DNA of 64,000 bases from an uncultured Clostridia bacterium (GTDB lineage Bacteria; Bacillota; Clostridia; TANB77; CAG-508). Shown here piece after piece: positions 9,567 to 54,200 of the stretch (its first letter is position 1; each line of letters opens with the position of its first letter). The notes below the pieces were generated by a model. It was not told the DNA's origin. It made no database searches and saw nothing but the letters and a program-made list of their open reading frames with translations. The stretch spans positions 132,657 to 196,656 of the forward strand of contig CAKPAI010000002.1 in assembly GCA_934133005.1 (NCBI GenBank), given 5' to 3'. Position numbers and translations under genes: made by a program.

Positions 9567-9657
9567 TTTTTTTACCTCCTTAATTAGTATTTAGAGAGTT
9601 GTTCTTGGTAGAAGTTTTTTCTCAAAACTTCTACTTTGATACTCTTTTTATTTATTA

Positions 9658-9933
9658 TTATTTTGTTGTTGTTTTATCTCCTGCATGACCTTTGAATGTT
9701 CTTGTTGGAGCAAATTCTCCTAATTTATGTCCTATCATTTCTTCAGTAACATAAACTGGAACATGTTTTCTTCCATCATGAACAGCTATTGTATGGCCAA
9801 CCATTTGTGGATATATTGTTGAAGCTCTTGACCATGTCTTTAAAACTTCTTTTTTACCACTTTCATTCATTGCTTCGATTCTTTTTAATAATTCTGGAGC
9901 AACAAATGGTTTCTTTTTGCTAGATCTTGACAT
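9658..9933 (-). CDS. rpsS: 30S ribosomal protein S19
   Basis: 91 aa; [38 protein letters not shown] typical of uS19. Confidence 0.92.
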
Positions 9934-9948
9934 ACCTTATTCCTCCTT

Positions 9949-19926: not shown

Positions 19927-22251
19927 CTATCTTTTTATTAGATCATATTCAAATACTTTTACATTTTTTATGAAATGTTCAAAATCGTCTTTTTCTACAT
20001 TCATATTAAATTCGTCTTGTCCTTTTAATTGTAAATTATATAAGTCCATGTCTATTAGTCCTTCTTGAGATACATCCATTCCTAATGGAAGTGTCTTATT
20101 TTCATTTTCAAAAAATGTAATATTTGAATAAAACATCATTTTTGTATTTTCTGGTACATTTACTTTATATAAGTATGTTTCCTTTGATGGTTCTATCTCT
20201 TCTAATTTATCTAGTGTTTCATATGGATTTAAGCTAAATTTGCAAAAACCATATGGTTCAATTTTTTCATTTGATGCTTTATACAAACTTATATTACATG
20301 GTACTTCAACCATTTCTTCTTCTTTATTTAATATTTCATGAATGTCTTTTAATTTTTGTATGAATTCTGGTAGCTCTGTCTGTAAATTCACATTTAATAC
20401 CTTAAATTTATCTTTTTCAACTTCTCTATGTTTATTATTTTTTAATGTTTTTATTTTTGTTTTATCTTCAGTAACGTTTCCAAATATATCAAAATCTTTT
20501 GCTTCAATCTTTTCTATATCTTTTTTATAATCCTCTTTTAGCTTGTTTAATATCGCTTCCAATTTATCATTTTCTTCACTTTTATTATCTATAATGTTAA
20601 TTCCATCTAATACAAAGTTTGAAGCAAATACTGCATCTTGGGCACTATGTGACATTTTTTCCCTCTGCCTTGTATCAATGTTTGCAGCCAATGTCTCCAT
20701 ATCTTCTTCATAATTAAAATTCTTTTTTATTTTCTCTTTAGAAGTTTGTTCTTCAGTAACACCTTCTACAAGCATTTTTGATTCATCCTGGTTTGCATAT
20801 TTCCAAAAGTCAAATATACTCTTTCTATGCTCTTGTATTTCCTCTAAATAATTATTTGCAGAATCTACCCTTTTTTGAATACTTGCAATTTTCATTTTCA
20901 AAGCATTCATATCTAATATAGTATTTTTATTTTCTCTTTGAGCATCTCTTACTTCTTTTCCATATTTTATTACATCTTCAACTGTATATTTCTTCATTTC
21001 AAGTTCTGCTTCTGAAAAGTGTTCTTCTTTTGTTTTATCTCCATCTAGAATATCTTTCATTCTACTTTTATTCATTTCAGAATGTATTTCTTCTTTTTGA
21101 TTTTTGTCTCCTTTGAAGAAATATTTAAGTTTTCCTATAAAACTCTTTTTACACTCTTGAAAGTGTGAAATTTGAGCTTGTTTATTCATATACTCCTCTT
21201 CTAGTTCTTTTTCTCTTTTTTGAAAATCTTTTATGTCCGCTTTTAATTGCTTATTTTTTGTTTTTAGTCTTTCCGCTTCTCTTATTTTTTGTATAGCTTG
21301 ATCCTTTAAAAATTCGGGAAGTGTTTCATATTCAATTTTCATATCTTCAAAGAAAAATTCTAGTCCGCCTTTACTATCTACACGTAACTTAAATTTATAT
21401 TCGTTTGTAAGTTCATAAGCTAATATGAATAATGCTTTAATTAACTTATATGTATTACTTGCCTCTTTTTTATCAGATAATTCAATTTTATATTTGCTTG
21501 TCATTTTATCAAATATTGTGGTTTCTCCAACAATATGAATACTTAAATTTTGATCCTTATTTGTAACTTCATAAACTTGTGCCCAATTTTTTGTAAAATA
21601 CCATAAATAATTAATTATATCCTCTATTTCTGATTTTTTTAAAATTCTTTCACTATATTCTTCATTACTTATTGGTACAAAAATATGTCTACTATCACTA
21701 GACTTATGTTGTTCTATTTTTTCTTTCATTAGATAAAACATTGGTGCATTATCATTTTCTTCAATAGATGCCAGCATAAAATATTTTTTTGCATAATCAG
21801 AATAAAAAATTTGCCACTTGAAATTATTACTAAATTTTATATCAAATGGTATCTGTTTAGAAAATTCTGCTTGTTCTTCTTCTATTTTTTTAATATCTTC
21901 TAAATTTGTTTGATTCATCATTCTTAAAAAATAAGCATACTTTTCTAAATTTTCCTTATTCTGTTCCATATAAGTTGATACAGGACTTGCAAATTTATAT
22001 CTTTCTGAAAGTTCAGCTAATCTGTCTTTAGGTGTTACTAAAATTTCAACATCACTTACATCTATATACTTATATATTTTATAAGACTTTTCATCATATA
22101 CTTTTGGAAGTCTATAATTTAATGGTTCAAATTCTTGTAACACTTCCGGTACTTTTCCCAATTCAAATCCTATATATTTTACTTTGTTCGTTAATATATT
22201 TAAATTTTCAGTTGTTCCTTCAACTTTTTTTCTTTGCATTATTTCCTCCAT
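19927..22251 (-). CDS. hypothetical 774-aa protein, coiled-coil rich
   Basis: Long ORF in the AT-rich codon style. No motif recognised. Central Lys/Glu-rich heptad-like segments. Confidence 0.5.
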   Translation of the reverse strand: MEEIMQRKKVEGTTENLNILTNKVKYIGFELGKVPEVLQEFEPLNYRLPKVYDEKSYKIYKYIDVSDVEILVTPKDRLAELSERYKFASPVSTYMEQNKENLEKYAYFLRMMNQTNLEDIKKIEEEQAEFSKQIPFDIKFSNNFKWQIFYSDYAKKYFMLASIEENDNAPMFYLMKEKIEQHKSSDSRHIFVPISNEEYSERILKKSEIEDIINYLWYFTKNWAQVYEVTNKDQNLSIHIVGETTIFDKMTSKYKIELSDKKEASNTYKLIKALFILAYELTNEYKFKLRVDSKGGLEFFFEDMKIEYETLPEFLKDQAIQKIREAERLKTKNKQLKADIKDFQKREKELEEEYMNKQAQISHFQECKKSFIGKLKYFFKGDKNQKEEIHSEMNKSRMKDILDGDKTKEEHFSEAELEMKKYTVEDVIKYGKEVRDAQRENKNTILDMNALKMKIASIQKRVDSANNYLEEIQEHRKSIFDFWKYANQDESKMLVEGVTEEQTSKEKIKKNFNYEEDMETLAANIDTRQREKMSHSAQDAVFASNFVLDGINIIDNKSEENDKLEAILNKLKEDYKKDIEKIEAKDFDIFGNVTEDKTKIKTLKNNKHREVEKDKFKVLNVNLQTELPEFIQKLKDIHEILNKEEEMVEVPCNISLYKASNEKIEPYGFCKFSLNPYETLDKLEEIEPSKETYLYKVNVPENTKMMFYSNITFFENENKTLPLGMDVSQEGLIDMDLYNLQLKGQDEFNMNVEKDDFEHFIKNVKVFEYDLIKR

Positions 22252-30534: not shown

Positions 30535-31191
30535 CTAGTCTTTCACTACATAGTCATTTATATCTGGCTCAGAAAATACAGATTCGTCTATATTTTCAAA
30601 ATCATATTCTTTAACAGTTACACTATCTTCCCATTTTTGACCTATTAAAAGTCCTGTGTCTTTATTTATATACATTGTATTTTTTCCATTGTTAAATAAT
30701 ATATCAAAAATAGATCCATAATTTACTGCATAACATTCTTCATTATTGTAAATTGTTTTCCAAATAGTTGATGTCATTCCTGTTATAATAGCTTGTAAAT
30801 TATTTGAAAAAGCAAATTGATTTTCAACTGATGGAGCAAGAATTACGTTTTCAGTATTTATTTTAACACTTTTTTCAGTTTCAGTATTTACATACATCCT
30901 TTTACTTTCACTATACCAAGAAAGTTTTACTTTTTTTCCGTCTTTGTCAGTCTTTTCAAGAAGTGTTACTTTCTTATTGCCTTTTTTATAACTATCTATT
31001 ACTAAATCATATTCATTCATTGTTGTTACAGATTTTACATGATAATTTTCCTTACTACAATAATCCGCTGCTTCCACTTGCAAAGCTGAAAGTATAACAA
31101 AATTTCTTCCTGTATGCAATACTAATAATACCAATATTACTAAAACTACAATTCCTACAATTTGGGGCCATTTTCTTTTTTTCTTCTCCAT
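30535..31191 (-). CDS. hypothetical membrane-anchored protein (last gene of F1-like ATPase locus)
   Basis: N-terminal TM (IVGIVVLVILVLLVL), otherwise no recognised motif. 23-nt gap from the upstream gene. Confidence 0.5.
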   Translation of the reverse strand: MEKKKRKWPQIVGIVVLVILVLLVLHTGRNFVILSALQVEAADYCSKENYHVKSVTTMNEYDLVIDSYKKGNKKVTLLEKTDKDGKKVKLSWYSESKRMYVNTETEKSVKINTENVILAPSVENQFAFSNNLQAIITGMTSTIWKTIYNNEECYAVNYGSIFDILFNNGKNTMYINKDTGLLIGQKWEDSVTVKEYDFENIDESVFSEPDINDYVVKD

Positions 31192-31214: not shown

Positions 31215-32024
31215 TTAATATTTATATTCTTTTAAATCATTTATGCTTTTTATCAATAATTGCTCTCCTTTTGATGTTGAAAGTGAGTCAATACTCATAT
31301 TTATTGAATATTTATTTGATATTCCTGTTGCAAGTACATCAAATTTTAAAGATTCATCATCATTTATTGTTATATAATCATCTTTTTCATAATCATAAAT
31401 TTCGATGCTTGTTCTATAATTTACAATAGCATATGATAATGGTGAAACAACATATTGATTTGCACCTATAGTAATAGTAGTAGTTTCTAAGAAAAAGTAC
31501 ATATCATTTCCATCATATAAAAAACTTCCGTTTACTTCTTCTTGATTATTCTTATTAAACTTTTTAATTTTTGATGTATAATTTTCTCTTATTATATTAG
31601 TAAATTTATCTAACTTATATATATCTCCAGTTGGCATTACAAGTTCCACCTGTGCTGGAATTAAAGCCTTACCTAAAACATCAGTATAATACATAGGTGT
31701 TGAATCTAAATACACCGTTTTTCCACCCTCTAGTACTAATTTTATATCATCATTTATTTGCTGAACATCCATAGAACCAGAATATTCTTGCTTTATTCCT
31801 GCAAAATATTGATAATATGATCCTCCTGATAAGTTAATTTTAGTTTGACTTGATACTATTGCATTAAATATTTGATATATTATAAATACAAAAGCTATAA
31901 TCACTGCAACAAGTGCAATTCTAATTACTTTATCATTACTTCCAAATTTTTTAATTTTTCTTTTGCTCTGTGATTTCTTTATTCTGTTTGCCAACTTTAT
32001 TTGCACTTCCTTTCTCTTTCTCAA
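31215..32024 (-). CDS. hypothetical membrane-anchored protein (F1-like ATPase locus)
   Basis: Basic N-tail plus one TM. Apparent TTG start with a 74-nt out-of-frame overlap with the upstream gene; the start is uncertain. Confidence 0.45.
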   Translation of the reverse strand: MRKRKEVQIKLANRIKKSQSKRKIKKFGSNDKVIRIALVAVIIAFVFIIYQIFNAIVSSQTKINLSGGSYYQYFAGIKQEYSGSMDVQQINDDIKLVLEGGKTVYLDSTPMYYTDVLGKALIPAQVELVMPTGDIYKLDKFTNIIRENYTSKIKKFNKNNQEEVNGSFLYDGNDMYFFLETTTITIGANQYVVSPLSYAIVNYRTSIEIYDYEKDDYITINDDESLKFDVLATGISNKYSINMSIDSLSTSKGEQLLIKSINDLKEYKY

Positions 32025-32566: not shown

Positions 32567-34190
<1,624 letters not shown>

Positions 34191-36382: not shown

Positions 36383-37204
36383 TTATATACTATAATCATA
36401 GATTTTATCTCTATATTTAATAATTATTCCTTCTGACATATTATTATAAGGTTTTACAACAATATCATCATCTATTAAATCATATCTACTTTCTACATTA
36501 TTCGTGTAAATATACACTGTAGGTTCGATTTTTTCTAGTCTCTCATCTAAAGCTTCTATAAGTTTTCTTACATCAAATTTTTTCATTTGACTCATTTTTT
36601 CAAAATCAATTGTGCTTTTTTCCTTTGCAGTTAATACTTCGCTTAATACTTGTATTTGCTCATTAGGCTCTAATGTTAGTATATTATAAATAGCCTCTTC
36701 ATCAAATTTATCTCTGATTTTCTTTAATGCTTTGTATTCTTTGTTTTCGGATTCATTTCTATGCTCAGCAATAAAACTTTTTATAATCTTTTCGTTATTT
36801 ACAGTAAATACTCTTTTGACCTCTTTATAATTATTAAAAAATTGTGTCTCTCTGTAATCTGGAACATTTAAATTATATTTTATTTCTTCTGTTTGCTCTG
36901 CTTTAGCATCTTCTACTATGCTCTTTTTCTTCTTTTTACTGTTTTCTAATTCTGCAAATTCAGCTTCTTCTTCATCACTTTGTAAAATATTTTTATTAGC
37001 AGATTTTATTTCATCTATTTGTATTTTTATTTCATTTAGTTTTGATTGCTTTTCATCTAATATATAATCATAATCTTGCATCTTATTTACAAAATATTTT
37101 TTTGCATTATCATCCATTCTTTTAATAATGTTACTGAAAAGAATAAATACAAACACAAGCATTATTGCAATTAGTATCACTGCTACAATTACTAAACTTA
37201 ACAT
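36383..37204 (-). CDS. b/delta-fusion-like stalk protein: N-terminal TM + long coiled coil + OSCP/delta-like C-terminus
   Basis: 273 aa. TM at residues 1-25, then a Lys/Glu-rich helix. The C-terminal GIIIKYRDKIYDYSI resembles the delta C-terminus GGLVVRIGDKVIDGSV. It occupies the atpF-atpH position between the c-like gene and alpha. Confidence 0.55.
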   Translation of the reverse strand: MLSLVIVAVILIAIMLVFVFILFSNIIKRMDDNAKKYFVNKMQDYDYILDEKQSKLNEIKIQIDEIKSANKNILQSDEEEAEFAELENSKKKKKSIVEDAKAEQTEEIKYNLNVPDYRETQFFNNYKEVKRVFTVNNEKIIKSFIAEHRNESENKEYKALKKIRDKFDEEAIYNILTLEPNEQIQVLSEVLTAKEKSTIDFEKMSQMKKFDVRKLIEALDERLEKIEPTVYIYTNNVESRYDLIDDDIVVKPYNNMSEGIIIKYRDKIYDYSI

Positions 37205-37317: not shown

Positions 37318-37575
<258 letters not shown>

Positions 37576-37618: not shown

Positions 37619-39151
37619 TTAATAATTTATTATTTTTGAACTTAAATATTTGTTTATCTCTTGTCCATTATATTTTAAATTTTGTAGTTCTATTTTTATA
37701 GCACCATTTGAAGTTTTATACTCATTTGGTATAGCAAAACTACCTGTATAACCGTTAACACCTGCTTGTTCTAGTTCACTGCTTGTAAGTGTTATAATGT
37801 TATCTGCAGTTTCTTGATTATTTACATACACTGCAATTTCGGCTCCAGAATCATACACAAATTCACTATCTAATTTTAATGAATAATATACTTTATCTGT
37901 TGATACTCTTGTAATTTTCAAACTTTCCACTGGAGATTTAGTTCTAGTTACCATAGTATCTTCAATCATTTCTTCTACAGATGCGTCTGCAAATATTGTT
38001 TTATATCCCATTTCAATATAATAGTTAGTATTTGGAGAAAGTCCTGTTACTCTATAAGATGTATTTGATTTATCAAGTGAAATATTGTATGGTGTTATAT
38101 TATCACCAGATATTCTTAGATATACAACATTATATTTACTTTCAGGGTCAGTTACTGAATAATTTACATCTATGTAAGTAACTCCTGAACTTAAACTATT
38201 TAATTTTATGCTTTTTGCAAGTGTTGCGTCATCTTTCTTGCCACTATTGCCATTATATATACTATCAAATCCTGCTGCGACATCTTTTATCCATTTATTT
38301 AAATCATCTACCCAAGTTGTATCCATTTTAGTTCCAGGAGTAATATTGCTATTATTTCCAACATTTCCTGTTGTTCCCGAACCACCATTTATAATAGTTG
38401 TAGATGAATTATTATTATTTGTAGTAGAATTAGATGCATAATTTCCACCTTGATTTGGAATTGTGTTTTGATTTTCTTCAGTATTTTTCTCTTCTTCTTT
38501 TTCTACTTTTACATACTCGTTTGTACTTCCAAGTATCCTTTTTAAATTGATTGATGCTTCTTCTTGTTTAAATGTAAGTTGTTCATTTGCAACATCAAAA
38601 TCAAAATCGCTTGTACTTATAACCATTTCATTTATAGTTTTAGCATCAATTTGGTTATTTAATAATTGAGCATTTCCTAATCTGTCCACTATTACAATTA
38701 AATAATTTTTAGTAGATAGTGAACCTGTGTTGTTTTCTATGTTTGGAGCTACTATCAAATATTTTCTATCTGCAATTTTATAAAATTTACAATCATTGGT
38801 TCCATTAATTGTATTGTAGTTGGTTAGTTTATTAACATTTCCTCCTTCGAAGACTTGGTAAAAGTCTCCGAAAAGAGTTAATGAATTTCTGTTTTTATCA
38901 AATGCTACTGAATAGCTTCCTAAATTGTATTCTTTGTCCGTTTGGCTTTCTTTTAAATAATATCCACCTGTCCATTTTTTAGACACTGTTCCTATATTTT
39001 CCAGCTCTATATAATTATAATCAGAGTCATATACACATATAGAACTTGATACTTCATACTCTGTTTTACCATTTTGCAATACTATAACTACTGCTCCTGC
39101 AAGAATTAGTAAAATTATTATTACTATAAACGTAAATATTGTAAAATTCAT
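37619..39151 (-). CDS. membrane-anchored surface protein with FN3-like domain, paralog of the N-terminal module of the giant proteins
   Basis: ORF 37619..39178 (TTG). The RBS-supported ATG at 39151 begins MNFTIFTFIVIIILLILAG (TM). KIADRKYLIVAPNIE matches KISATKYLILANNMK of the 1950-aa protein. Shared N/T/G-rich linker TNNNNSSTTIINGGSG. FN3-like LSPNTNYYIEMGYK. Confidence 0.65.
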   Translation of the reverse strand: MNFTIFTFIVIIILLILAGAVVIVLQNGKTEYEVSSSICVYDSDYNYIELENIGTVSKKWTGGYYLKESQTDKEYNLGSYSVAFDKNRNSLTLFGDFYQVFEGGNVNKLTNYNTINGTNDCKFYKIADRKYLIVAPNIENNTGSLSTKNYLIVIVDRLGNAQLLNNQIDAKTINEMVISTSDFDFDVANEQLTFKQEEASINLKRILGSTNEYVKVEKEEEKNTEENQNTIPNQGGNYASNSTTNNNNSSTTIINGGSGTTGNVGNNSNITPGTKMDTTWVDDLNKWIKDVAAGFDSIYNGNSGKKDDATLAKSIKLNSLSSGVTYIDVNYSVTDPESKYNVVYLRISGDNITPYNISLDKSNTSYRVTGLSPNTNYYIEMGYKTIFADASVEEMIEDTMVTRTKSPVESLKITRVSTDKVYYSLKLDSEFVYDSGAEIAVYVNNQETADNIITLTSSELEQAGVNGYTGSFAIPNEYKTSNGAIKIELQNLKYNGQEINKYLSSKIINY

Positions 39152-39207
39152 TTTATTTCCTGCTGCTAAGTTTCTCAAATGGTCTCACCTCCTATTTTCT
39201 ATATTCT

Positions 39208-42200
39208 CTAATTATTTTTGTTTATATATGCTGTATTATTTATTGTGCCTACTAATGTGTTTCCTACAAACAAGTTCATTTGAATTGTATACGTTCCGCT
39301 TGACTTGAATGTCTCTGGTAATATTACTTTATAATATGAAACTCCAGAATTCTCGCTATCTTCTTCTTGTCTCCACGTAGGTGTAAATGTACCACTTTGT
39401 GTTTGGCTATTCGTTAAATTATACATTGTGTATGTTATTTTATCAATTTTTGTAATATTGTAATAGCTATCATAGAATCTCATTTCACAAGAATTTTCAT
39501 TTTGTACTAATGCTGTACTTCCTATTGCAACATCTTGATCATTTTCAATCTTACTTATACTATATTTTTCTTCTTTATCTTCTGTATTTCCATCATTGTT
39601 CCTGTCATATTTTAATTTTATAACTGCTATATAGCTATAAGTTCTATAATCAATACTGCTTTGTTGTACATACACTGAGAAATTTGTTCCATAGTCATTT
39701 ATATTGAATTTTTTCTCAGTTATAGCACTTCCTCCAATTGGAGTTGAATATATTGGAACTTCATTTTCTTCTGTAAATTCTGGAGAACCTCCTTTATATC
39801 TATATACATGTAATTCATATTCTCCATATTCTTGTCCTTGAATCATTGCATCTGGATCTTGAACGGTAGTTGTTACTCTGATGTAATCAATTTCATTATT
39901 ATTTTGATTTACTTTTTGTCTTCTCATTGTCAAACCTATCTTTGGCTCCTGCAATGTATCTAAAGTAAATTCTGCTTCTTCTGTTTCAATTTCAACAAGT
40001 GCTCCATTATAAGTAACCATTGGTGTTATCTTTAATATATATTTCTTATTTATGCTGAATGTATTATAATCTGGACTTATTGATATTTTTTCATTTATAG
40101 CATTTATTAAGTTTTCTGTTTCATATTTTGCATTAGTTACAATAAGCTCTCCATTTTCATTTATCTCATATTTTGAATTTTCGCCTCTAACTACATTATT
40201 ATCAGTAAGTGGTACTAATGTTGTACCATCAGCTTCATAGAATGCATATTTTGTAAATTCATACATATTTGACCTGTTTTGAGTTATTTTATAATCTATG
40301 TCTATATACTTTTCTTTATATTTTACAGCATCATACTTAATTGATATTGAATTAATTCCTATAGTTGCTAATGTTTCAAATTGATAAACAGCTCCAACTT
40401 CTTTTGTATCCATATCATATAAATATACATCGCTTACACCATCATTGTATCTGAATCTTATATAGTAATATTCAGCAGGTGATAAATCATCTAATACTAT
40501 AGTATTTTCAAATTCATTTTCTTGTAATAATTTTGTTATTACTGTATCACTTTTCCAATTTGGTTTAGCATCTTTATCTTTTGTATGGTATATCTCTATC
40601 GTTATTCCACCTGGAATTGTCATACTATTTGGTTTTATAAGTGAAGCACTAATTTCTGCTTTCTTTATACTTGTTTCTATTTTATTCATTTTTATTCCAG
40701 CTCTTAAACTTTGAATTGAAATAGTTTTTTCTGTTGCAAATTCTGTTTTTGCAATTTCTTTTTGAGTTATTATCATATCATTTTGTTTTAAGCCAGATTC
40801 AGTATATTGCATACTTAAAGTTACACCAGCAGTTCCATTGTTTATTGCATCAATGTTTGATATTCCAAGTCTTGCTTCGCTATTCTCTGCTGAGAAAGAA
40901 TAGTTATACATATTTCCTCCAATTTTATCTACTACTTCAAAGTTTGCATCATTTAAAGCTACATATGCGCCATTTGCATTTGTATATGCTGAATATTCAA
41001 ATGCATTTGTAGGAGCATATCCAATTACTCCATCATCATAATATAGAATTACTTCTATATTTGATTGTTTTCCTATAAAACTATCAAAATTACTATTTGT
41101 AGCTGCAAGTTCTAGTAAATCAACATCAAAGTAATAGTTATCATCATCGTTCACTTTTAATAACTTACTTGTCATTGTTTCTCCATTTTGTGTAAATTTA
41201 ACTTGAGCTGCTGCAATTCTTGAAGCTTTATCTCCGCTGAGCTTTAACCTAATACTATTAGGACTTTTATCATTATCATAAGCTATGCTTTCAATACTCA
41301 CATCATTACAATTTACAATTCCTTCAAATTTTTGTGTAACCATTGTTACAGTTTGATATACTTTTCCATTTTTTGCTTTATTTACGTTTTTATTATAGCT
41401 TAATGTAAATGTAACATTTTTCTGTGGTATATATATGCTTAGATTATCTAATTTTCCATCAGTTTTTACTTGAATATCACTATTTTGTATTGAACCATTT
41501 ACAGCAAGTATTAAATGAGCATATTCTCTTGTATCATTTTCGTTATATTGTAGAGCCGCATCCACATCTTTGCAAGAATATTTGTATGTTACTGTCGTAT
41601 CATCAGATGTTATTGGATACATTACAAAACTTGGATCTTGTTTTTGTGGATATAATATTTCTGTCTTTAATGTTTGTGTTGTATATTTTGAACTACCATC
41701 ATCTTCAGTTATATTAAGTGGCCATATTATATCATTTCCATTATTATCAGTATATGTTACTGTATATGAGAAGATATATCCATCACCTCTATGCAATTTT
41801 CCTGTTTCATTATCTTTTTCGATTGTATCAATTGTACCATAATCCAATTCGAATATTGCTGATGGAGCTTTATCTTGTGTCACAAAATTTAGTGTTTGTT
41901 TTAATTGTACTCTATTTCCATTATCGTCTGTTACATATTTTCCACTCTCATCTTTTTCATATATTGGATTTCCTTCAGCATCCCATACATAATATGTTAC
42001 AGATTTAGCACTTAAAGAACCAGTATTTGCAAACTTAGTTGATACAAAGTATCCAACTGCTGTGTTGTCTAATAAATTACTATCTTTTTCTAGACCATAT
42101 CTATTGGCTTCAGCATTTGTAATTACAGTAGCTGTTGGTCTTGCAGTATCTTCTGTAATATCTGCAGTCGTTCCTTTTCCTTTCACTATTATATATGCTG

Positions 42201-45060
42201 CTGTATATGTTTCTTTTGTTGATTTATTAGTATATGTTGTATCTCCTGTATTTATATCATCATCGTCAGCAGATTTAACTGGAATTTTATTTGTATACTG
42301 TGTTCCATCAACAGTAGCTGTTACAACAACTTGATAGTTTGCTTCAGTATAACTACTTTCATATCCACCACCTATTAAAGATGGAGTTACAACTAAGCTA
42401 TTTTCAAAGAATAAGTCTTGCAAACTGGCTACTTCTGTTGGATATTTTGCATTATCCACAACTTGATCAAAATTATTATTTGTTATTGTTCTTGACCAGC
42501 TATTATATTCACCACTATTTATGTCTCCAGATCCCTCATATACCATTATGTCTACACTAGATAAACTTTCTTCTGAGGAAATTGTATCAGCATCAAAACT
42601 AAGGTCAACAGTAAATGCGTTTCCAGCAGGTGCATTTTCTGGTACAGATAAATTAGCTGTTATTGGACTATACTTATCTGTTGTAATTATGCTACTTCCA
42701 ATATAAGCATTCTTATATCCTCCTGAAGTACTTTCTTCATCTTGTAAATCTACAGTTCCATATGCTGAGAATGTATATGATGTTTGTGCTTTTAATCCGT
42801 CTTTCTTATTTCCTTCTTTACCAAGATCAACGTTAATTCTTATTACACTATTTCCATCAACATCTTCTGTCTTTCCATATAATTTTCCATCTCCATATGC
42901 ATCAAGATTTGTTATTTTTAAATATGTTGTATTTTCAACTACGTCACTATAATAGCTTATTGTTAATGGATTTTGGTCATCTACTACTATTGTATTTTGG
43001 TTATCGATTATGTCTAAGTATCCAATTATTTCTGTTGTTTCAAAGTCATTGTTTGTTGCTTTTGTAAATTTAACCGTTGGGAAAGTTTTTCCATTTAATG
43101 AGAAAGCTCCTGCAATTGTACTCTCTACATCAACATATTTCTCATTGTCATATGTTGTCGCAATTACTTTAAATCCATATGATTTTCCTCTTATAATCGA
43201 ATCATTTGATTGCTCATTTCCTACATCTATAACAATATTTCTATCTGTTGTTTGTTTTTGATAAACAGGATTTTTTACATCATATGTTGTCTCATATAAA
43301 CCATCATCATTTAATATAGTTTTAAATTCATATACATAATATTCATATGATTTAATCGCAGAATCTTTATCTGTTACTTCATCAATATATAATGTAAATG
43401 TTCCATCTCTTTTATTTACAGCATAATTTAGCTTATCAATGCTTGCTTTTTCTTTTAAAGTTTGGCAGTTATAATATATTGCCCAATTTTCACCTTCTTG
43501 AACTGCTCCATTGTAACTTATATTTTTTACTTTTACTATATAATTTGTATTTGCCTCAAGTCCAGTAAATTCAACTTCTTCAATTCCGCCACTGTTTTTC
43601 TTTGTTTGATTTTGATTTATAATTTCATTACCATTAGCATCTAATAAATATATTTCCGCACTATCAACATTTGAATCTTTAAATTCTAGATTGAATGTAA
43701 GTGAATTTGCAGTATAAACTTCCTTGCTTATTTCAACACCTATTGAAGATGTTACAAATGTTTTATATAAGAAATTTTTTGTATATACATTGTCATTTAA
43801 AGTATATGTTGCAGTTGCTACTATTGAATAGCTTGTATCAGGTAATAATGTTTGAACATCTATTGGTATACTAAATGTTCCATATGCCTCTTCATCCATG
43901 TATACAACTTTTCCAGTTGCATTGTTTGTAATTTTTATAGTAACATTATCATTTTTTGATAATAAGTCTTCATCATCAGTAATTTGAACTGTTGCTTTTA
44001 TTCCTACTGAAGATATATCCATATCCTCTAATTTAAACTTAGGTTCAGTCTTTGATACTGTTTCATCAACTTTTGTTTCATTATTTTGTATATATTGATA
44101 AATAATATTTACTATTTCAAGGTTTACTTTAGTTTCATCATTTTCTATATTTGTATCAGTTGTTGTTCCTGCATTTGAACCACCATTTGTTCCACCGTTT
44201 CCACCATTTATTATTGTTGTTCCTGAATTGTTGTTATTTGTAGTATTTGTAATTGTTGTGCTACCGCCATTTCCGCCTGTAGTATTATCTATTTCTGTAT
44301 TTTCTTCTGTATTAGTGTTAGTATTTTTATTTTCATTTAAATCAATTAATGTAACATTATCATTAGAATTTATTACCATATCTTCTAAACTCATTTTGTT
44401 TTCATCATTTACACTAACAATTTTTGTTCCTAAATTTAACTTAACACCACTGCTTAATTCTATAAAAGAGTCTGAAGAAATTGTTTGATAACTGAATTCT
44501 TGATTATAAATATTAACAACCTCGCTATCAGAATACTCTACTTCTAGATATCCTGTTACATCTTTTGTATTTCCATTATTAAGTGTTACTTTCATATTAT
44601 TTGCTAAAATCAAATACTTTGTAGCAGATATTTTCCATATTGCTTCTTCAAAATTAACATCTTCTTTTAAATTTTGTACAGTATATCTATTTGAGACTTT
44701 TTTTATCTCTTTATTTGAAGCTACATTATAGTATACAATTGGATCATCATTTATTTTTGACAAATCTAATAAAACACCATCTTGTAACGATATAATATTT
44801 CCACTTGTATAGTGAATAAAATTATCATTACCTAGTGTAACCTTTGTTCCCTCTGTATCATTAAAAACTATTTGTTTATCATAAGATGTTGTATATTTCT
44901 CTTTTTCATAGAAATAATACCTATCTGATGAACCGTTTAAAATATATCCAGATTCAGCAAATTCCATCCTCTTACTTTTTTGTACATTTATTACATTAAA
45001 TGTAAGTACTGTTCCTAATATTAGTCCTATCATTATAAAAAATACAATATACTTTTTCAT
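39208..45060 (-). CDS. giant secreted/anchored surface protein (1950 aa) with multiple FN3-like/Ig-like repeats
   Basis: AAGGAG RBS, N-terminal signal/anchor MKKYIVFFIMIGLILGTVL, N/T-rich linker, repeated L-P-x-T-x-Y-x-[IV] FN3-like strands (LLPDTSYSIVATATY, LEANTNYIVKVKN). No C-terminal TM. Confidence 0.8.
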   Translation of the reverse strand: MKKYIVFFIMIGLILGTVLTFNVINVQKSKRMEFAESGYILNGSSDRYYFYEKEKYTTSYDKQIVFNDTEGTKVTLGNDNFIHYTSGNIISLQDGVLLDLSKINDDPIVYYNVASNKEIKKVSNRYTVQNLKEDVNFEEAIWKISATKYLILANNMKVTLNNGNTKDVTGYLEVEYSDSEVVNIYNQEFSYQTISSDSFIELSSGVKLNLGTKIVSVNDENKMSLEDMVINSNDNVTLIDLNENKNTNTNTEENTEIDNTTGGNGGSTTITNTTNNNNSGTTIINGGNGGTNGGSNAGTTTDTNIENDETKVNLEIVNIIYQYIQNNETKVDETVSKTEPKFKLEDMDISSVGIKATVQITDDEDLLSKNDNVTIKITNNATGKVVYMDEEAYGTFSIPIDVQTLLPDTSYSIVATATYTLNDNVYTKNFLYKTFVTSSIGVEISKEVYTANSLTFNLEFKDSNVDSAEIYLLDANGNEIINQNQTKKNSGGIEEVEFTGLEANTNYIVKVKNISYNGAVQEGENWAIYYNCQTLKEKASIDKLNYAVNKRDGTFTLYIDEVTDKDSAIKSYEYYVYEFKTILNDDGLYETTYDVKNPVYQKQTTDRNIVIDVGNEQSNDSIIRGKSYGFKVIATTYDNEKYVDVESTIAGAFSLNGKTFPTVKFTKATNNDFETTEIIGYLDIIDNQNTIVVDDQNPLTISYYSDVVENTTYLKITNLDAYGDGKLYGKTEDVDGNSVIRINVDLGKEGNKKDGLKAQTSYTFSAYGTVDLQDEESTSGGYKNAYIGSSIITTDKYSPITANLSVPENAPAGNAFTVDLSFDADTISSEESLSSVDIMVYEGSGDINSGEYNSWSRTITNNNFDQVVDNAKYPTEVASLQDLFFENSLVVTPSLIGGGYESSYTEANYQVVVTATVDGTQYTNKIPVKSADDDDINTGDTTYTNKSTKETYTAAYIIVKGKGTTADITEDTARPTATVITNAEANRYGLEKDSNLLDNTAVGYFVSTKFANTGSLSAKSVTYYVWDAEGNPIYEKDESGKYVTDDNGNRVQLKQTLNFVTQDKAPSAIFELDYGTIDTIEKDNETGKLHRGDGYIFSYTVTYTDNNGNDIIWPLNITEDDGSSKYTTQTLKTEILYPQKQDPSFVMYPITSDDTTVTYKYSCKDVDAALQYNENDTREYAHLILAVNGSIQNSDIQVKTDGKLDNLSIYIPQKNVTFTLSYNKNVNKAKNGKVYQTVTMVTQKFEGIVNCNDVSIESIAYDNDKSPNSIRLKLSGDKASRIAAAQVKFTQNGETMTSKLLKVNDDDNYYFDVDLLELAATNSNFDSFIGKQSNIEVILYYDDGVIGYAPTNAFEYSAYTNANGAYVALNDANFEVVDKIGGNMYNYSFSAENSEARLGISNIDAINNGTAGVTLSMQYTESGLKQNDMIITQKEIAKTEFATEKTISIQSLRAGIKMNKIETSIKKAEISASLIKPNSMTIPGGITIEIYHTKDKDAKPNWKSDTVITKLLQENEFENTIVLDDLSPAEYYYIRFRYNDGVSDVYLYDMDTKEVGAVYQFETLATIGINSISIKYDAVKYKEKYIDIDYKITQNRSNMYEFTKYAFYEADGTTLVPLTDNNVVRGENSKYEINENGELIVTNAKYETENLINAINEKISISPDYNTFSINKKYILKITPMVTYNGALVEIETEEAEFTLDTLQEPKIGLTMRRQKVNQNNNEIDYIRVTTTVQDPDAMIQGQEYGEYELHVYRYKGGSPEFTEENEVPIYSTPIGGSAITEKKFNINDYGTNFSVYVQQSSIDYRTYSYIAVIKLKYDRNNDGNTEDKEEKYSISKIENDQDVAIGSTALVQNENSCEMRFYDSYYNITKIDKITYTMYNLTNSQTQSGTFTPTWRQEEDSENSGVSYYKVILPETFKSSGTYTIQMNLFVGNTLVGTINNTAYINKNN

Positions 45061-45298: not shown

Positions 45299-48200
45299 TT
45301 ATCTATTACTTTTTCTATACATTACAATCAAAGCTAAAATTATTACTAAAACTATAATTGAAATCAATATAGTTCCTATATTTTGCATTGTTTTCTTTCC
45401 AGTAGATATGTTATTGTAATAGTTTGTTAATTCTTGACTCTTATTTATCTTTGCATTTTCTGTAGTTATAGTTGATGTTGTTGTATCTAAAAGTTCATTT
45501 GCACTATATACTACATAGTTTTGTGAATTTGAATCATATGCAGTTACATAACCTGCACTTGCGTTATTATTGCTACTTTGATTTGAGTTCGAAGGTTTTT
45601 CTCCTGTTGTATTTGTCTCAGTCATAGTATTATTCGAATTGCCACTATTTCCTGTTTCACTATTTTCAGTATTTTGCTTTAATTCAATTTCACTTGTTGC
45701 ATCAGCAATAGATTTTTTCTCTAATTTTTGTACTAACTCTTGAGCCTCTTTATAATCTTTTTCATCAATTTTATATGATAGATTTTCTAAACTCAATCCA
45801 TTTAATAAGTAACTTACAAAGTTTGTACTTTCATTATTTACTCCATTATCATATATTTCTTCACCAGTTATATAATTAAATCCATATACATTTCCTGTCG
45901 CAGAATATATTAAAACTATTTCACTGTCATTATTTAAGTTATTAGTCATTTGTATAATCTTTTCATTTTTAAAGTTTACTGGATATTTAATATCAGTTAG
46001 AAGATTATATATTTTACCATCAGTACCAAGAGTTGATTCATACTGCTTATTATTGTATGAATCTATTACTACAGAAGTTCCTACATTAGAGAACTTTCCA
46101 TCAATTACATACATAGTACCTTTTTTGATAAATATTTGTCCATCTTTGAATACATTTGTTCCATCTTCTTCTGTTACTTTTGTACAATGATAGAATGTTT
46201 GAACTTTTTTACCTAAATATGTGCTTTCTGTTATTGGAGTAATATTATCTAATAATTTCATTCCAGATACATTTCTAATATTTTTCATAGAACTTAAATC
46301 ATAAACATTTCCATTTGAATCTAGTACTTCGCTCTCATATAAGTTTGTAAAAGTTCCTTTTATTGTTCTTTTATTTGAATTTAGACTTCCATCTGATAGA
46401 TAGAAATATTCATCATTAGATATTGCAAGCATATTTCTTATATCATCTGCTTCAAAATCTTTTGTATCCCAATAATTAGCATTTGTAATTCTTATAGTAA
46501 ATGGAGATTTAAAATCATATTCAAAAGTATATACTCTTTGATTTATTTTTTGCTTTTCACTTATAATTTCGCCATTTGAAGTTACAGAAAATGTTGCACT
46601 TGTATTTGCCTTGCTAAATTCAATATTTATTTTATCTGCTCCTACAGTATATACATAAACTTGTGGCAAGTCTTCTTCCAATTGATCATCCTCATAATAT
46701 GCTACTGGCATAATCTCATCATCTAAAAGCATTAAATTTGCTAACGTTGCTTCACTTGCTAGTTGTTCACTAAACAATCTTATTGTAGCTTCACTATAAG
46801 TTATTGTTCTTTCTGGTATTGCAAATTCTTTAATAGTTACTCCCATTTCACTCCAATAAGTTTGTGCTGAATAATTTGGTTTTAGTGTTGGAAAATATCC
46901 AGATTTATAATTGTATCTTCCTGTACCAAAGTTTAAGCCTTCATTTCCTACAGCAACTTGTCCTATAACAGTAGAACCAATTATATTTCCTTCTTCATCA
47001 TACTCATACTCGTATTCATCCTCATAGATTCTTACATTTTTAGTATAATTACTTACAACTTTTAGCTCATCACTAGTTATCATTTTATAGTTTTCATTTT
47101 CTTCTACAATTCCTGATACTTGTGTTTTTGTAGCTAATAATTGGTTTTGCAAATTGCTTCCATTATATATGTAAATATTATTCATATATTTTGCTTGAAA
47201 TAACCCATAGTCAGAATTTTTAATTGATGCAATTCCCATATCAGCATATTTGCTTGATGTAGATATAACATCTGTTGCAATTAAATTACACTCAATAATA
47301 TTATATTTTTCAACATCAGGATCATAATTTATTTCTTTATATATTTCACCAATTAAGCCTCCTGCTGAACTTTTAGCAGATATATTTATTGTCTCATCAC
47401 TGTTTGCAATATAGTTATATTTTATTGTAGCTTTATATTGTAAGTTATTTAATTTGCTATTATCAAAATATCCTACTATTCCACCGGCGCCTTCTCCTGT
47501 TGCTGTTACATCAGTATTTACAGCATAACAGTATTGGATATTTCCAACTTGGCTTCCTCCTGCGATTCCACCAACATAATTTGCTCCTTTTACATAGCTA
47601 TCTTCTATATATGAATGCCACAAATAGTAATTGCTAGATTTTATTGAATTTGCTGAAGTTCCAACATAACCTGTATAGTATCCAACAATTCCTCCAACAT
47701 AATTTCCTCTTCCTGTAACTGTAGTATTATTAGTTACAGCTCCACCATGTATTGTTCCTCTCTCATATCCTGCAATTCCTCCAACATAACCAGAACCAAT
47801 AATCGTTACATTTGATACATATGCTCCAGCAGTTGAATAATTTGAATTATTAGATGTTGATATTGAAGTATTAGTATACTCATTATATCCAACAGCTCCA
47901 CCTACATAATTTCCAGAAGCCGTTACTTGGCAGTTCTCAACTTTTAATTCTTTTATTCTTCCATTTGTCCATCCAACAGAACCAGATACATAGTTTCTAC
48001 CTATTATTTCTTGGTTTGTTCCTGTAGATAGTGAGTTATTTAAAGTAGCATTATTGTTATTTAGTCTTCCTACATTTCCTGCTACATAATCTAATCCTTT
48101 AATATAATTGTTTCTAGATACAGGGTTTGAAACTGATGACCAACCAGTATTTCCATAATTTCCACCTACATAAGAACCCGTTGCACTCTTTGTTTTGTAG

Positions 48201-51200
48201 TCACTTACTTTATTTAGATTATTTGTTGCAATTATTATGTTATTTTCTGAAGTTGCACTTATGCCACTCCATCCTCCTTGTTGACCATTGTTGCCTCCAA
48301 CATAATTTGCTCCAAGTATAATATTATTTGTTGAAACCATATTATTGGTTGAACTTGCACCATTTCCACAATTTGCACCTACATAATTTCCAGTTCCTAA
48401 AATTATACTATTGCTTACTTTTGAGTTATAGAAAGTTGATCCACTTCCACCATATTCACCAATCGCTCCTCCAATGATACTTCTTCCTTTTATTAAGTAA
48501 TCGGTTTCTTCATCGCTATCTTTTTTACCATTTTCAGAATATTGATATGCATAAACTCCATTGATTGTATTTTGTGTACTTCCGAATATTCCACCAGCAT
48601 AATCGCCCGATGCAGTTACCTGTAAATATGTTCCTTTTATGTTACTTGTTGATCCCAATGACGCTGTATATCCACATAATGAACCAACATAGCTTTCACC
48701 TGTAACATTCATTCTATTTAGTGTAATATTATTAAATCTACCAGAAACTGCTCTTGATACTACTCCGACGTAATTCTTTCCGCCTTCGATAGTTATGTTA
48801 TCAAAAGTACAATCCTTCATTTCTCCTCTTAGTATGCTAATGATTCCACTATAATTTCCAGTACATGTAATCTTAGAATCTTTAAAGTGAATATTTTCGC
48901 AATTTGTTTTTATTTCTTTTATAAGACCAGAACTATCTCCTACTGATATATTTACATTTTTAAATGAATATTCTGTACTTCCTTCTAGTCTACCAATTAC
49001 AACATTTGTTACAATATGATCAACTGTACTAAAATCAATATCTCCAGTTATTCTTACATTTTGACCTATGTAATTTTTTCCTGAATTTTCAAAAAAGTCA
49101 TTCCACTCATCAGCATTTGAAATACCTTTATATAATGTAACTTTTATTTTCGTTGATATTTCTTTTTGTACAAAGTTTGTTCCATCTCTTGTATAAATTA
49201 TATTTTCAATTTTATAACTTTCAAAAGCTTTATTTGGAGTTGCAACAAATTTTGCTATTGTAAGTCCTGTTCCTTCCTCCTTTGATGTAGTCCAGCTTCC
49301 ATCAACAACAGACATATCATTGTCTTCTATTGTTACACCTGTTAAACTTAAATCATTAGGATTTTCAAATTTCATTTCTACTGTAACATTTGTTTTGTCT
49401 TCTGATGGTGTAGAAGTAATACTATATAGTTTTAAATCATTATCAAGTGTAATTAGTTTTTGATTTGCAAGCAATCCACTCTTTGATGTATTCATTAATT
49501 GTGGGAAATATCTATTATTTAATAAATTCATTTCTTGACCATTTTGAACTATCGTTCTTGCAAAATTATCATCAAATTTTAACAAGTTTGCAAAAGTATT
49601 GTCTGTAAATATTTCATTATCTTTTAATAGTTTAGTTGCTCCATATAAATCTGTTTTCTTTTCGCCACTCATTAATTGGTCTGCATAAGCATAGTTATTA
49701 TATGAAGTAGTTCCGCCATTGTTTCCTAAAATTCTATTGAAGTTATATATACCTGTGTTTCCTGCTATATAAATATTTCCTAAGAATAAACAGTTTTGTA
49801 CTCCTGAAGCACCAGTATCACTATAACCTGCAATACCTCCAAAGTAAATATTTCCACTTGTAGTTTTTGTATTTAAGTTAATCAAACTATAACAATTCTT
49901 TACATAGCAAGAACCATATTTTCCAAATCCTAAAATTCCTCCTGCATTTGTAAATGTATTTATCCTTCCTGTAGTATAACAGTTTTGAATATAGAATACT
50001 GGTGAACCTGCTTTTACTCTTTCATCTGAGTCATGTCTTTTATAACCAACAATTCCTCCGATACCATCTACTTGAGTTACACTCGTTGCTTCAACATTAT
50101 AATTTTGTACATAACAGTTTTGTATATATGTAGTAACACCACCAAATGCATATAAGTTTCCAACAATTCCTCCTGCATCAATATACAATGAATTTGGAGA
50201 ATTAAATGTCAAATCAAATCCTTGAACAGAACAGTTTTGTACTTTTATACTGTCAGCTGGATTACTACTTCCACTACTAATTGAACCTACTATTCCTCCA
50301 TATTTTCCATTGTCTTTATTATATGACACATTCATTTCCATATTTGATATACTAACATTATCAATTAGTATATTATCAGTCATATCTGCTCTAGCAATCA
50401 TTCCTGCATATTGAGAATTTGTATTTATTGTAAAGTTATTTATATTAAGATTTTTTATTTCACCTTCTGCAAATCCTGCAAATAACGATTCTGTTCCACT
50501 TATGTTATTTATAGTGTGCACTTTTCCTTCATATTCGCCATCTAAGTAGCCTGTAAATGTTCCTGTTATATATGGGCTATATTCAGAATCAGCAAAATTT
50601 AAATCATTAACTAATCTATAGTTTTGTATTAATCCACTTACGCCATTTTCATCAGTTTGATCTATATTTGTCCAGTCTTTTTCGTTTGCTATCTTCTTTA
50701 CAAATCTTACATCAATATATCTTGTTCCCATTGCTTCATTTTCACCATATACTGATGTTTTTATGACACCATTTGCCTGCTTACTTTGAATCTTTGATAC
50801 ATTGTAAGTATCTAAGAATGAAGTTGGATTATTTAATAACATATATACTGTACTTACTCTCTTGCTATATGATTGGCTTAAAATTACTTCATCCAAATAA
50901 TCAACATCAATTACACTTATTGTTGTTCCTGCAGGGTTATAAACTCTAAATGAAACAAGTTTTGTATTTTCATCGGTCAAATCAACATTATTTAATGTAA
51001 TATATGAATTTATTTCATTTCTAACCTTATCTGTTATATCTAATGAACTTATATCATTATTTTCTATTACAGAACCTGAAAGTATATCAATTATTTCATT
51101 ACCTGTAATATCTATTTTTACATTGTCTTGTTTAGGCATACAATAATTTAGTTTTAATTGAGGATAATATCCATTTGAAACTAAATTTTCAACAGTAAAG

Positions 51201-54200
51201 TTTTTATAACTATTAGCATTTAATATTACTTCTTGAACCCCTGGTTCGTAAAGTCCTGTTGATGCTGTTTTAGTATTATAATCACTGTCATCATACATTA
51301 CTTCACAGAAATAGTAACAATCATTTACATTTGTTCCTGCATTTTTATTCAAAATACTTGGTCCTAAATATTGTTCTTTATTTTCTGCATCTAATTCTCC
51401 TGAATATTCAAAATCTTCATATGCAGTAATAATTGACATTACAGAATATACATTTCTTATAGTAGCACTGCATGATGGTCTTGATATTATCTGTCCTAAG
51501 TTATTAGTTACAGGTGGATATCCTAAATCATATACAATATTTCCTGCATAAGAATATGTTCCACTTGTATGATTTATTTTTATTGTTGTTGTATTAAATA
51601 TATTTTGCATTAGTCCATTATTTCCATCTAATTGAACTGCTACTCCTCCAATATATCTATAGTCATATGCAGCTATATCTCCATATGTTTCAATTCCTTG
51701 CCCATAAATATATCCATTTTGTATTGTTCCATGTGAATATAAGCAAACTCCTGCTATATATTGTGATGCATATAATGGTACTTCATAATCTATGATAAAG
51801 TTATCTATTTTTCCTGAATTGTCATATCCAAGTAAAGCGACATTTGCTCTTGCTTTTTGAGTTGCCTTCTTTAGTCTAACAATTACATTATCTATGTTTC
51901 CTTCATTATATAAGAATAGTGAATAATATCCATCTTCTTTTGCAGCTGGTACTTCAACAATTTTATCTCCAACTACAGTTACTGTCATTTTAGGAGATAC
52001 ACTATTTAAAGAATAATCTATTACAATATTCTTTAAATCAGCTTCTGCTCCTAATTTATAGAATATATATGAAGTTACTTCTCTTTTTGTTGTTAGCGAA
52101 TAAGTATCTTTAGTTATGGTTTTTCCATTGAAGTCTATTGTTCCATTAAATGTTATATTTGGATTTCCAAATGTATAAGATGTTGCTCCTCCAGCATTAC
52201 TTAAATCTATATCATTTAATAGTATATAATTTCCATTAGGTTGTATCTCTAGAAATTCATCAATTGTTGATATACTCTTAATTTCAGTTTTAGCATTTAC
52301 GTCATATTCAAAAGTTACTTGTGACAATACATATTCCCTACTATATTGCCTTATTATAAGCTCTACTGTGTAATCAATAGTATCATTTCCACTTTCTTCA
52401 ATAATATATTTTTTCACTTCTTCGATCATAGTTACAGAATCATAATTATAATCAAATTCTTGTACTTTTGTTTGATTTGAAGAATTTTTAGAAGTTATTT
52501 TTATATAATATTTACATGAATTTGCACTTTCATCAAATGTAACATGTTTTTCATCTATAAATTTAACATCCATATTTGCATAGAATGTATATTTATATTT
52601 TTCATAACTTGTCGCAGAATTTCCTTTTTCTGCTTGTAAATCTTTTACTTTCAAATAATAGTCTTTTTGATTTATAACTTCTTCATCATCAGTTATTTTT
52701 TCACCATCTTCATTGGTCTCGCCAGGAATTATATCCACTTGTGAATAATCTTCTAGGTAAAAACCTACAAAACCATCATCTGGTACAGTTATTGTTTGTA
52801 CAAATTCTGCCCAATTATCAGTTGTTATTCCACTAAGTTCAGTTATATTTCTGCCAATTCCTTTTCCTAATTGCATATATATTTTTGGTGTTCCTGTTGC
52901 TACAGGATTGTTATCTTTCCATTGATATTGTGCCTTAAACGATAATGTAACTTTTTCACCCACATAATTTCCTAAATCATAAACATAACATTGATTTGAT
53001 AAGAATGTAATTTGATTACTATTTTCATCATATGTCTTACCATAATTATACTTAGATCTTGTTTCATAATTTACAACATCATTATCTAATACATACTCTG
53101 TCTCTAGTACACCAAATGTTTTTGCATACCAATTGTTGTTAGATGATACATCTATAAGATTCTTTCCATTATCTGCAATTTCTCTTTGAAGTCCTATTAA
53201 ATCTATACTTCCTCCAAGACCACTTGTAGTAAACTCTTTTTTACCAATTTGATAATTGTTTTGAACTTTATTAGCATTATTAGTCTCATTATACGAAGCC
53301 GCCTCACAAGTGAATGTATAAATTTCATTTTCTGTTAAGCCTTCATATGTTAATCTTATCCATCTGTTTGTAGGAATTTTAGTTGTGCTTTTTACTTCTT
53401 CTTTGTTCTCATCTATTACTTCTATAGTTGGCAAATATTCTTTTGAAAATCTGTCAACCAATCTTACTATTGTTAGATTATCAGCAACTGCTCCATCTTC
53501 ATCGTCAATATAAATATCCATATCAATTAAGTTTGTAGTTGCAATTACATTTCTTATTTGAAGGGTTGCTGTTTTCTTGTTTGTCATAAAACTATTTGTA
53601 GTATATGATGTTACAATTTCTTTTTCTACACTTCCTTGTTTTGCTACTGCCTTTAACTCAATTTTATATGTTGTATTTGATTCCAAGTTTTCAAATAAAT
53701 TTGCAATTCCATCAGTTTTTAATGAATTTATATCGTCCATAAATACTGATTTAATTTCATTATTCTTACTATCTCTTATAATCATAGTGACATTTTGTAA
53801 AATATTAACTAGCCTATGATCTGTTTTGTCTGTATTTATTGTGGTCCTTAGATTTGCACTACTTGATGTTATATCATTATCTATATCATATGTTACTTCT
53901 AATTTTAAACTACCTAATTTACTTAAACTTAATGTAGTAAATGTTGCACTTCCAATTTCTTGATCTTGTTTTATTCCATTACCATCACCTATATCAAAGT
54001 CACCAAAAACTCTAATTGTATAAGTATTTTCTGGATCTAAATCGCTAAATTCTAATTTATTATCACCTATTTCTAAGTTATCTCTTTTTACTACTTCACC
54101 ATTACTTGATAATAAAATATATCTATAATTATCTATCGTTACTTTATCTTCATTTATTAAAGATACATTTATCGTTACACTTGTTACATTTTGTGCATTT

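Follow-up and report, generated by a model that had tools for sequence, protein, structure and literature searches.

The subject of this report is a protein of 273 amino acids (aa) encoded in a 64,000-nucleotide (64-kb) stretch of DNA from an uncultured Clostridia bacterium (contig CAKPAI010000002.1, positions 132,657 to 196,656; hereafter, the window). Its gene, on the minus strand, is a genuine open reading frame (ORF) with an ATG start. It forms part of an operon in which genes for an F-ATPase c-like subunit of 83 aa, the 273-aa protein, alpha-, gamma- and beta-like subunits, and an 87-aa protein follow one another. The initial annotation of the window had placed a single 273-aa protein in the atpF/atpH slot, and the ORF does lie there, with the c-like gene on one side and the alpha gene on the other. 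As modelled, residues 112-273 of the protein make up an entire, though highly divergent, delta/OSCP unit, which is joined through a helix and a variable linker to a single N-terminal transmembrane (TM) helix (Table 1). The window, in which murC, spoIIP, relA, recJ, hisS and thrS also occur, belongs to the ordinary chromosome of a walled spore-former.

Table 1. Features of the 273-aa protein and of the conserved gene cluster (positions are those of the window)
Feature	Position	Strand	Evidence
ORF of 273 aa: TM helix, helix, linker and delta/OSCP-like unit	36383..37204	-	Searches, AlphaFold, Foldseek
Single N-terminal TM helix, residues 4-24	37133..37195	-	Hydropathy 3.67 over residues 4-22; helical, pLDDT 89-94
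Membrane-proximal cytoplasmic helix, residues 25-70, with motif NAKKYFVNKMQDYDYILEEKQ	36995..37132	-	Alignments, conservation by blocks, AlphaFold
Variable charged linker, residues 71-111	36872..36994	-	pLDDT 41-50; alignment occupancy 0.07-0.5
Helix bundle like the delta/OSCP N-terminal domain, residues 112-205	36590..36871	-	Domain model; Foldseek over ~160 columns
Helix and four-stranded unit like the delta/OSCP C-terminal domain, residues 206-273	36386..36589	-	Model, Foldseek, Pfam match of P0262, hhalign
C-terminal motif GIIIKYRDKIYDYSI	36386-36430	-	hhalign to E. coli delta
c-like subunit, 83 aa	37318..37569	-	PF00137, E=1.6e-7
Alpha-like subunit, 444 aa	35031..36365	-	Pfam/NCBIfam, alignment
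Gamma-like subunit, 261 aa	34227..35012	-	PF00231, E=1.5e-28
Beta-like subunit, 456 aa, with Walker A, GERSREG and DELSDED loop	32820..34190	-	TIGR01039, 480.9 bits (cut-off 462.85)
Protein of 87 aa in the epsilon position	32567..32830	-	Position only; conserved in loci
Membrane protein with ~5 TM helices, 196 aa	31951..32541	-	Conserved in cluster
Single-pass membrane protein, 269 aa, bulk predicted extracellular	31215..32024	-	Conserved in cluster
Single-pass protein, 519 aa, weak fn3 signal	37619..39178	-	Conserved directly upstream of c
Giant protein, 1950 aa, N-terminal anchor	39208..45060	-	Conserved in cluster
Giant protein, 3484 aa, N- and C-terminal TM segments	45299..55753	-	Conserved in cluster

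The delta/OSCP-like unit

The model of residues 112-273, generated with AlphaFold from a diverse alignment of 60 sequences, has a predicted local distance difference test (pLDDT) value of 93.8 and a predicted template modelling (pTM) score of 0.79. It contains eight helices, of which seven are short and one is longer, and four strands. When the model is compared with 350,542 PDB chains using Foldseek, the first 36 matches include nothing but delta, OSCP or mycobacterial b-delta chains, identities that were verified by the depositors' chain names. Among them are the subunits of Pseudomonas aeruginosa (9o19_W), E. coli (6oqr_W), bovine mitochondria (6yy0_S), chloroplast (6vmb_d), Bacillus PS3 (6n2y_I) and Mycobacterium smegmatis (7njn_d). 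The alignments span about 140-165 columns and take in both delta domains in order, with probabilities up to 1.00, and a model of the full-length protein yields the same ranking. By its modelled two-domain fold the protein groups with delta/OSCP, at Foldseek E-values of only 2e-3 or weaker. In F-ATPases the N-terminal domain of delta/OSCP, which the bundle of residues 112-205 resembles, is the part that binds the N-termini of alpha. The initial annotation had recognized delta-like character in the C-terminus of the protein. That likeness stands, but its extent was underestimated: it covers the whole two-domain unit and not the last 15 residues alone.

Searching with PF00213 (OSCP) and PF00430 (ATP-synt_B), the check that the initial annotation had suggested, gives no match to either model for the window protein, which therefore falls below the PF00213 gathering threshold of 22.3 bits. 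The domain of a family member of 23% identity (P0262) does exceed this threshold (23.6 bits, E=6e-5), and its match is colinear, since residues 119-160 align with positions 120-161 of the 172 in the OSCP model. Weak matches to OSCP (E<=10) are present in 13 of 119 family members, where OSCP is the second most frequent Pfam family. Profile-profile alignment by hhalign places the C-terminus of the family profile on residues 141-167 of E. coli delta, with GIIIKYRDKIYDYSI opposite GVIIRAGDMVIDGSV (residues 150-164). The score of 19.1 compares with a maximum of 14.3 for 60 shuffled versions of delta, which bears out the resemblance to the delta motif first seen by inspection, and the same profile scores no higher than 14.4 against five other E. 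coli Atp subunits. When the profile is limited to the domain in close members (A2), only 8 columns align with E. coli delta. Beyond the motif, E. coli delta continues into a C-terminal helix (residues about 165-177), whereas the 273-aa protein stops at the last strand and lacks this helix. A weak sequence signal is normal for the delta family, because E. coli delta itself finds the mycobacterial b-delta at E=2.7e-4 only, and over the same C-terminal stretch. The delta assignment rests on the predicted structure, the match of P0262, the weak matches in 13 of the 119 members, and gene order; the hhalign result is a further, independent sequence signal in line with the fold.

Membrane anchor, linker and family

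In the full-length AlphaFold model, a helix runs from residue 2 to residue 70, reaching about 45 residues past the membrane. Residues 71-119 follow with low confidence (pLDDT below about 50), and a compact bundle begins at about residue 120. Just past the membrane the family carries a juxtamembrane motif, NAKKYFVNKMQDYDYILEEKQ in the window protein, for which the consensus KxYFxxKLQxYDxLIxxK is kept family-wide. The connector that links the TM helix to the delta-like domain varies from 53 to 105 residues among the 119 members (median 66; 87 in the window protein), and its centre, at about residues 71-111, is the least conserved part of the family. Some relatives, of 319-385 aa in total, have ~110-190 extra residues that are acidic, Asn/Ser-rich or Gly/Ser/Asp-rich (L022, at 9416-10573 of its locus, P0133, P0238 and P0258). 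This insert follows the membrane-proximal helix and precedes the delta-like domain. On these predictions the connector is a flexible tether and not a long coiled coil.

Subunit b (PF00430) also consists of a single TM helix and a cytoplasmic helix, and its gene also follows that of c. In sequence, no similarity to b can be detected, nor is there evidence that the 273-aa protein forms a dimeric coiled coil. Pfam/NCBIfam scans of the window protein give no ATP-synt_B match. In a phmmer search E. coli b reaches only E=2.2 against the window proteins, chloroplast b reaches only E=0.25 with the family profile, and by hhalign the N-terminal profile aligns with E. coli b no better than with shuffled b. 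A subunit b would be expected to combine its TM helix with a long continuous helix extending to the crown of F1; here the TM helix is present, and the cytoplasmic helix is predicted only as far as residue 70, beyond which lies the variable, low-confidence linker. The several parts of the initial description of this region have therefore fared differently. The N-terminal TM helix is confirmed by hydropathy. The ~170-aa Lys/Glu-rich helix is not, since the predicted helix stops near residue 70 and is followed by a variable, low-confidence linker. The b-like N-terminus survives as a layout (a TM helix with a membrane-proximal helix) but not as homology to b or as a long coiled coil, and "b-like" is a description of the layout alone. 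The compact minimal peripheral stalk is replaced by a tether, the linker being variable and partly disordered. For the same reason, a rigid b2-like stalk was considered and rejected.

The family to which the protein belongs is large and unnamed. A search of 5.8 billion proteins returns 128 homologues at 90% clustering; none has a Pfam domain, and none is usefully named. With a profile built on the last 166 residues, 1.84 billion cluster representatives yield at least 282 representatives at 50% clustering (E<=1e-3), including 151 at E<=1e-10. Nearly all of the 282 are 240-290 aa long with the matched domain at the C-terminus, so that the layout is common to them; the median length in the family is 253 aa, against 273 aa in the window. 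Because the 128 and 282 relatives share this layout and synteny is strict, the family is real and not a chance ORF. The identical window protein is present, nameless, on 170 contigs. There is no Pfam or NCBIfam model for the family, and the sources give its members without a functional name; one entry is labelled ComGC. A few members (P0127, P0149, P0174 and P0234; 162-170 aa) consist of the delta-like domain alone, with a Met start near the domain boundary. These may be truncated gene calls or true free-standing delta-like proteins.

The ATPase genes and the surrounding cluster

The order c, 273-aa protein, alpha, gamma, beta is found in all 30 loci that are long enough (25 genomes and 5 metagenome contigs), over a range of GC content from 27 to 58%. 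Thus, in 30 of 30 loci the gene lies directly upstream of alpha, the position of a delta/OSCP gene. Each of the 25 genome loci comes from uncultured gut Clostridia (human, rabbit and chicken hosts), and one of them is a closed chromosome of 1.70 Mb (OZ006978.1). Across the more distant loci the 273-aa protein is 23-40% identical. The full cluster begins with a giant protein (~1750-2225 aa) and a single-pass protein (~470-690 aa), continues with c, the 273-aa protein, alpha, gamma and beta, and then encodes the epsilon-sized protein, the 5-TM protein (~180-200 aa), a single-pass protein (~230-277 aa) and a second giant. This second giant, of more than 3400 aa, lies upstream in the clade of the window and downstream in the other clade. 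Full-text literature searches return no description of this cluster.

Judged from its sequence, the F1 module looks catalytically competent. The canonical atpA and atpD models give alpha and beta higher scores than the mycoplasma models do. The N-terminal helix of E. coli alpha is the segment that binds delta; the corresponding helix of the cluster alpha aligns with it and is kept and conserved across loci. At its other end alpha stops about 60 residues short of the C-terminus of E. coli alpha, a truncation common to all cluster alphas examined. Extended forms of beta occur in two relatives. In L015 (12967-15012) the beta ORF reaches 681 aa and has a long low-complexity tail with five copies of the Lys/Glu-rich repeat EEARKAKEKAKQE, and in L014 (13018-14738) a low-complexity acidic tail runs past the end of the contig.

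In the c-like protein, which is 81-98% identical across species, the GxGxGxG motif and the GRNPE loop are kept, as is a conserved FYNPL motif at the C-terminus. An ion-translocating F1Fo has a carboxylate in the second TM helix (TM2) of c and an a subunit with an essential Arg. In 27 of 27 c sequences (37318-37569 of the window, plus those of loci L001-L024, L027, L029 and L031) TM2 contains neither Asp nor Glu, and Ala62 stands opposite D61 of E. coli. No subunit a is recognizable by Pfam, hhalign or phmmer in the cluster or anywhere in the 64-kb window, in agreement with the initial annotation, which had described an F1 head that has none. Neither Pfam nor hhalign relates the 196-aa 5-TM protein to subunit a, the 5-TM protein has no invariant Arg, and the 87-aa protein in the epsilon position finds no support as epsilon from Pfam or hhalign. 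With E. coli a, b, delta, epsilon and AtpI as queries, nothing is found in the window; likewise, no second ATPase is found there, and no second b-like gene is found in the cluster. Topology prediction reveals no other cluster protein with a long cytoplasmic part that could serve as a stalk.

In the giant proteins (1950 and 3484 aa) and in the 519-aa protein, only weak fn3 signals are detected. A GC-rich relative, L027, has a giant of 2225 aa with collagen repeats and a neighbour of 4274 aa. The 269-aa single-pass protein (31215-32024, minus strand) has a faint match to the mycoplasma MAG1140 family (E=0.026). A single-pass protein of 218 aa (30535-31191, minus strand), encoded between pgi and the cluster, is without counterpart in the related loci and probably lies outside the conserved cluster. 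Elsewhere on the minus strand of the window, a 383-aa ORF (16058-17209) matches the mycoplasma "MAG6410 family transglutaminase-related lipoprotein" model at E=1.2e-34, under the cut-off of that model, and a 774-aa ORF (19927-22251) has no NCBIfam match at E<=1e-5.

Relation to known machines and proposed role

The closest parallels to the 273-aa protein are delta/OSCP itself and the mycobacterial b-delta fusion. Like delta/OSCP (PF00213; E. coli AtpH, 6oqr chain W; bovine, 6yy0 chain S), it has the fold, the C-terminal motif and a gene position upstream of alpha, and its alpha partner keeps the N-terminal helix, as does that of delta/OSCP. It differs in being only 10-17% identical to the solved chains and in being fused to a TM anchor. 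Mycobacterial b-delta (AtpH, 445 aa; chain d of 7jg5, 7njn and 7nkd) has the same domain order, an N-terminal membrane helix followed by a C-terminal delta. A fusion of this type has also been reported in Gordonia (PMC5709465). However, the mycobacterial protein has a long b-type helix, works with a separate b' and serves a normal proton-driven F1Fo, which has an a subunit and a carboxylate in c. Here the protein is 273 aa long with a short or disordered connector, and neither a partner b gene nor an a subunit nor a c carboxylate is found in the cluster.

As a system, the cluster may also be compared with the F1-like X0 ATPases (Types 2 and 3) of mycoplasmas. These are encoded by seven genes in the order P1 (12 TM), P2, gamma, epsilon, P5, alpha and beta; there is no c, b or delta, and the N-terminal helix is missing from alpha (PMC3369863, PMC12994834). 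They include the gliding motor of M. mobile and the partner of the MIB-MIP system (together PMC3369863, PMC11864180 and PMC12994834), and in them, as here, an F1 module is combined with membrane proteins that are not those of Fo, is tied to large surface proteins and is presumed to be driven by hydrolysis. The cluster cannot be assigned to Type 2 or Type 3, and this classification was rejected: gene order and content differ, and a c and a delta-like protein are present.

The flagellar protein FliH is not known to have a TM helix. It partners the type III export ATPase of the flagellum in a stator-like way, and homology to b plus delta has been proposed for it (bioRxiv 10.1101/2021.01.01.425057). 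What it shares with the 273-aa protein is the concept of one chain that tethers an F1-like ring to a membrane platform; the gene context differs, and in Foldseek FliH matches the model of the 273-aa protein at E=5 only.

Taken together, we think it probable, though by no means settled, that the 273-aa protein is a membrane-anchored delta that acts as a leash-type stator for an ATP-driven F-type machine. One copy would cap the alpha3beta3 head by gripping the conserved N-terminal helices of alpha, while the TM helix and the juxtamembrane motif would fix the other end in the membrane. Its membrane partner there would likely be the conserved 5-TM protein or another membrane protein of the cluster. 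Held in this way, the head could remain stationary as the hydrolysis of ATP drives the rotation of gamma, the epsilon-sized protein and the c-ring. A slack tether of variable length would resist torque only as a rope does, under tension and in one direction, which would be enough for a motor that only hydrolyzes ATP. The machine is unlikely to pump or use ions, because its c-ring lacks the ion-binding carboxylate and no a subunit is recognizable. Its output would more probably be mechanical work on the giant extracellular proteins encoded with it than ion transport.

Several observations weigh against this proposal. In searches with Pfam/NCBIfam models, the window protein has no OSCP match even at E<=10. 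Three HMMER profiles of the family, built from close members (A1), from 119 diverse sequences of full length (A3) and from 60 diverse domain-only sequences (A4), recover no delta chain from all PDB sequences, and the full-length profile draws only coiled-coil noise, such as haemagglutinin HA2. The Foldseek E-values are modest (2e-3 to 0.3), as are the TM-scores (0.42-0.45); we assume that these values reflect a different angle between the two delta domains. Finally, a connector of the median length of 66 residues, as a pure helix (~100 Å), would not reach the top of a standard F1. The tether is geometrically feasible only with an extended linker or a low-lying head.

The slack of the linker also lends itself to another explanation, in which the delta-like domain serves to cap or assemble F1, the TM helix is a passive pin that holds the head at the membrane without taking up torque, the c-ring is a static anchor, and the whole works without sustained rotation, for example as a switch or an unfoldase-like device. 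A linker that is disordered and very variable in length would suit such a pin, as would the failure to recognize an a-like stator partner, and mycoplasma F1-like ATPases function without a delta or b homologue (PMC3369863, PMC12994834). We nevertheless regard this explanation as rather improbable. Gamma, the loop of c that contacts gamma/epsilon, and the DELSDED of beta are all kept, and these are what a rotor needs. The 81-98% identity of c across species points to strong constraint, and the family-wide juxtamembrane motif suggests a specific partner in the membrane.

A further suggestion is that the cluster is simply the organism's own F1Fo in very divergent form, with a b-delta stalk, a degenerate a subunit (the 196-aa protein) and an ion site that escaped recognition. 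The gene order mirrors atpE-F-H-A-G-D-C, beta scores above the atpD equivalog cut-off (480.9 versus 462.85 bits), the GRNPE loop and glycine motif of c are canonical, and the window contains no other ATPase. However, a membrane Asp or Glu is present in 0 of the 27 c sequences, with Ala62 at the position of E. coli D61, and the 5-TM protein has neither similarity to subunit a nor an invariant Arg. In addition, genes for giant extracellular proteins always accompany the cluster, and a slack linker of variable length would be a poor stator for ATP synthesis. A divergent synthase is thus unlikely. Least likely of all, and hard to credit, is that the likeness to delta arose by convergence or is a prediction artefact and that the protein is an unrelated single-pass scaffold of the giant-protein machinery or a FliH-like tether: a helical bundle is a common fold, there is no HMMER-level similarity to solved delta chains, the Foldseek E-value is never under 1e-3 and FliH surfaces only at E=5, but the first 36 of 350,542 chains are all delta, OSCP or b-delta with both domains in order, the P0262 match to OSCP is independent, colinear and above threshold, the C-terminal motif is rightly placed and beats 60 of 60 shuffles, the gene lies exactly in the atpH position, and a weak signal is normal in this family (E. 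coli delta versus b-delta, E=2.7e-4).

If the 273-aa protein is a tethered stator, its properties bear on how rotary motors are built. The peripheral stalks of rotary ATPases are usually seen as stiff, elastic stators. The combination of a slack, variable linker with an ion-free c-ring suggests instead a stripped-down design for hydrolysis only, and the cluster offers a way to test directly how much of a stator is required by a rotary motor. For annotation, the family offers a route to genes that have no Pfam or NCBIfam model at present.

More tentatively, the whole cluster may be an undescribed ATP-driven rotary machine of walled gut Clostridia, in which the leashed F1 head would spin an ion-free c-ring and transmit torque through membrane partners to giant extracellular proteins; we hold this to be possible but less likely than the stator role of the 273-aa protein itself. 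If it is true, the giant proteins could have a role in surface movement, adhesion or remodelling, and the machine would stand as an extant intermediate between F1Fo and the F1-like X0 motors of mycoplasmas. These motors are not known to have an equivalent outside the mycoplasmas, and repurposed F1 motors are so far known only from that group, where they serve gliding and antibody cleavage. Should the cluster prove to be such a motor, repurposed F1 machines would extend to the abundant uncultured Clostridia of the gut.

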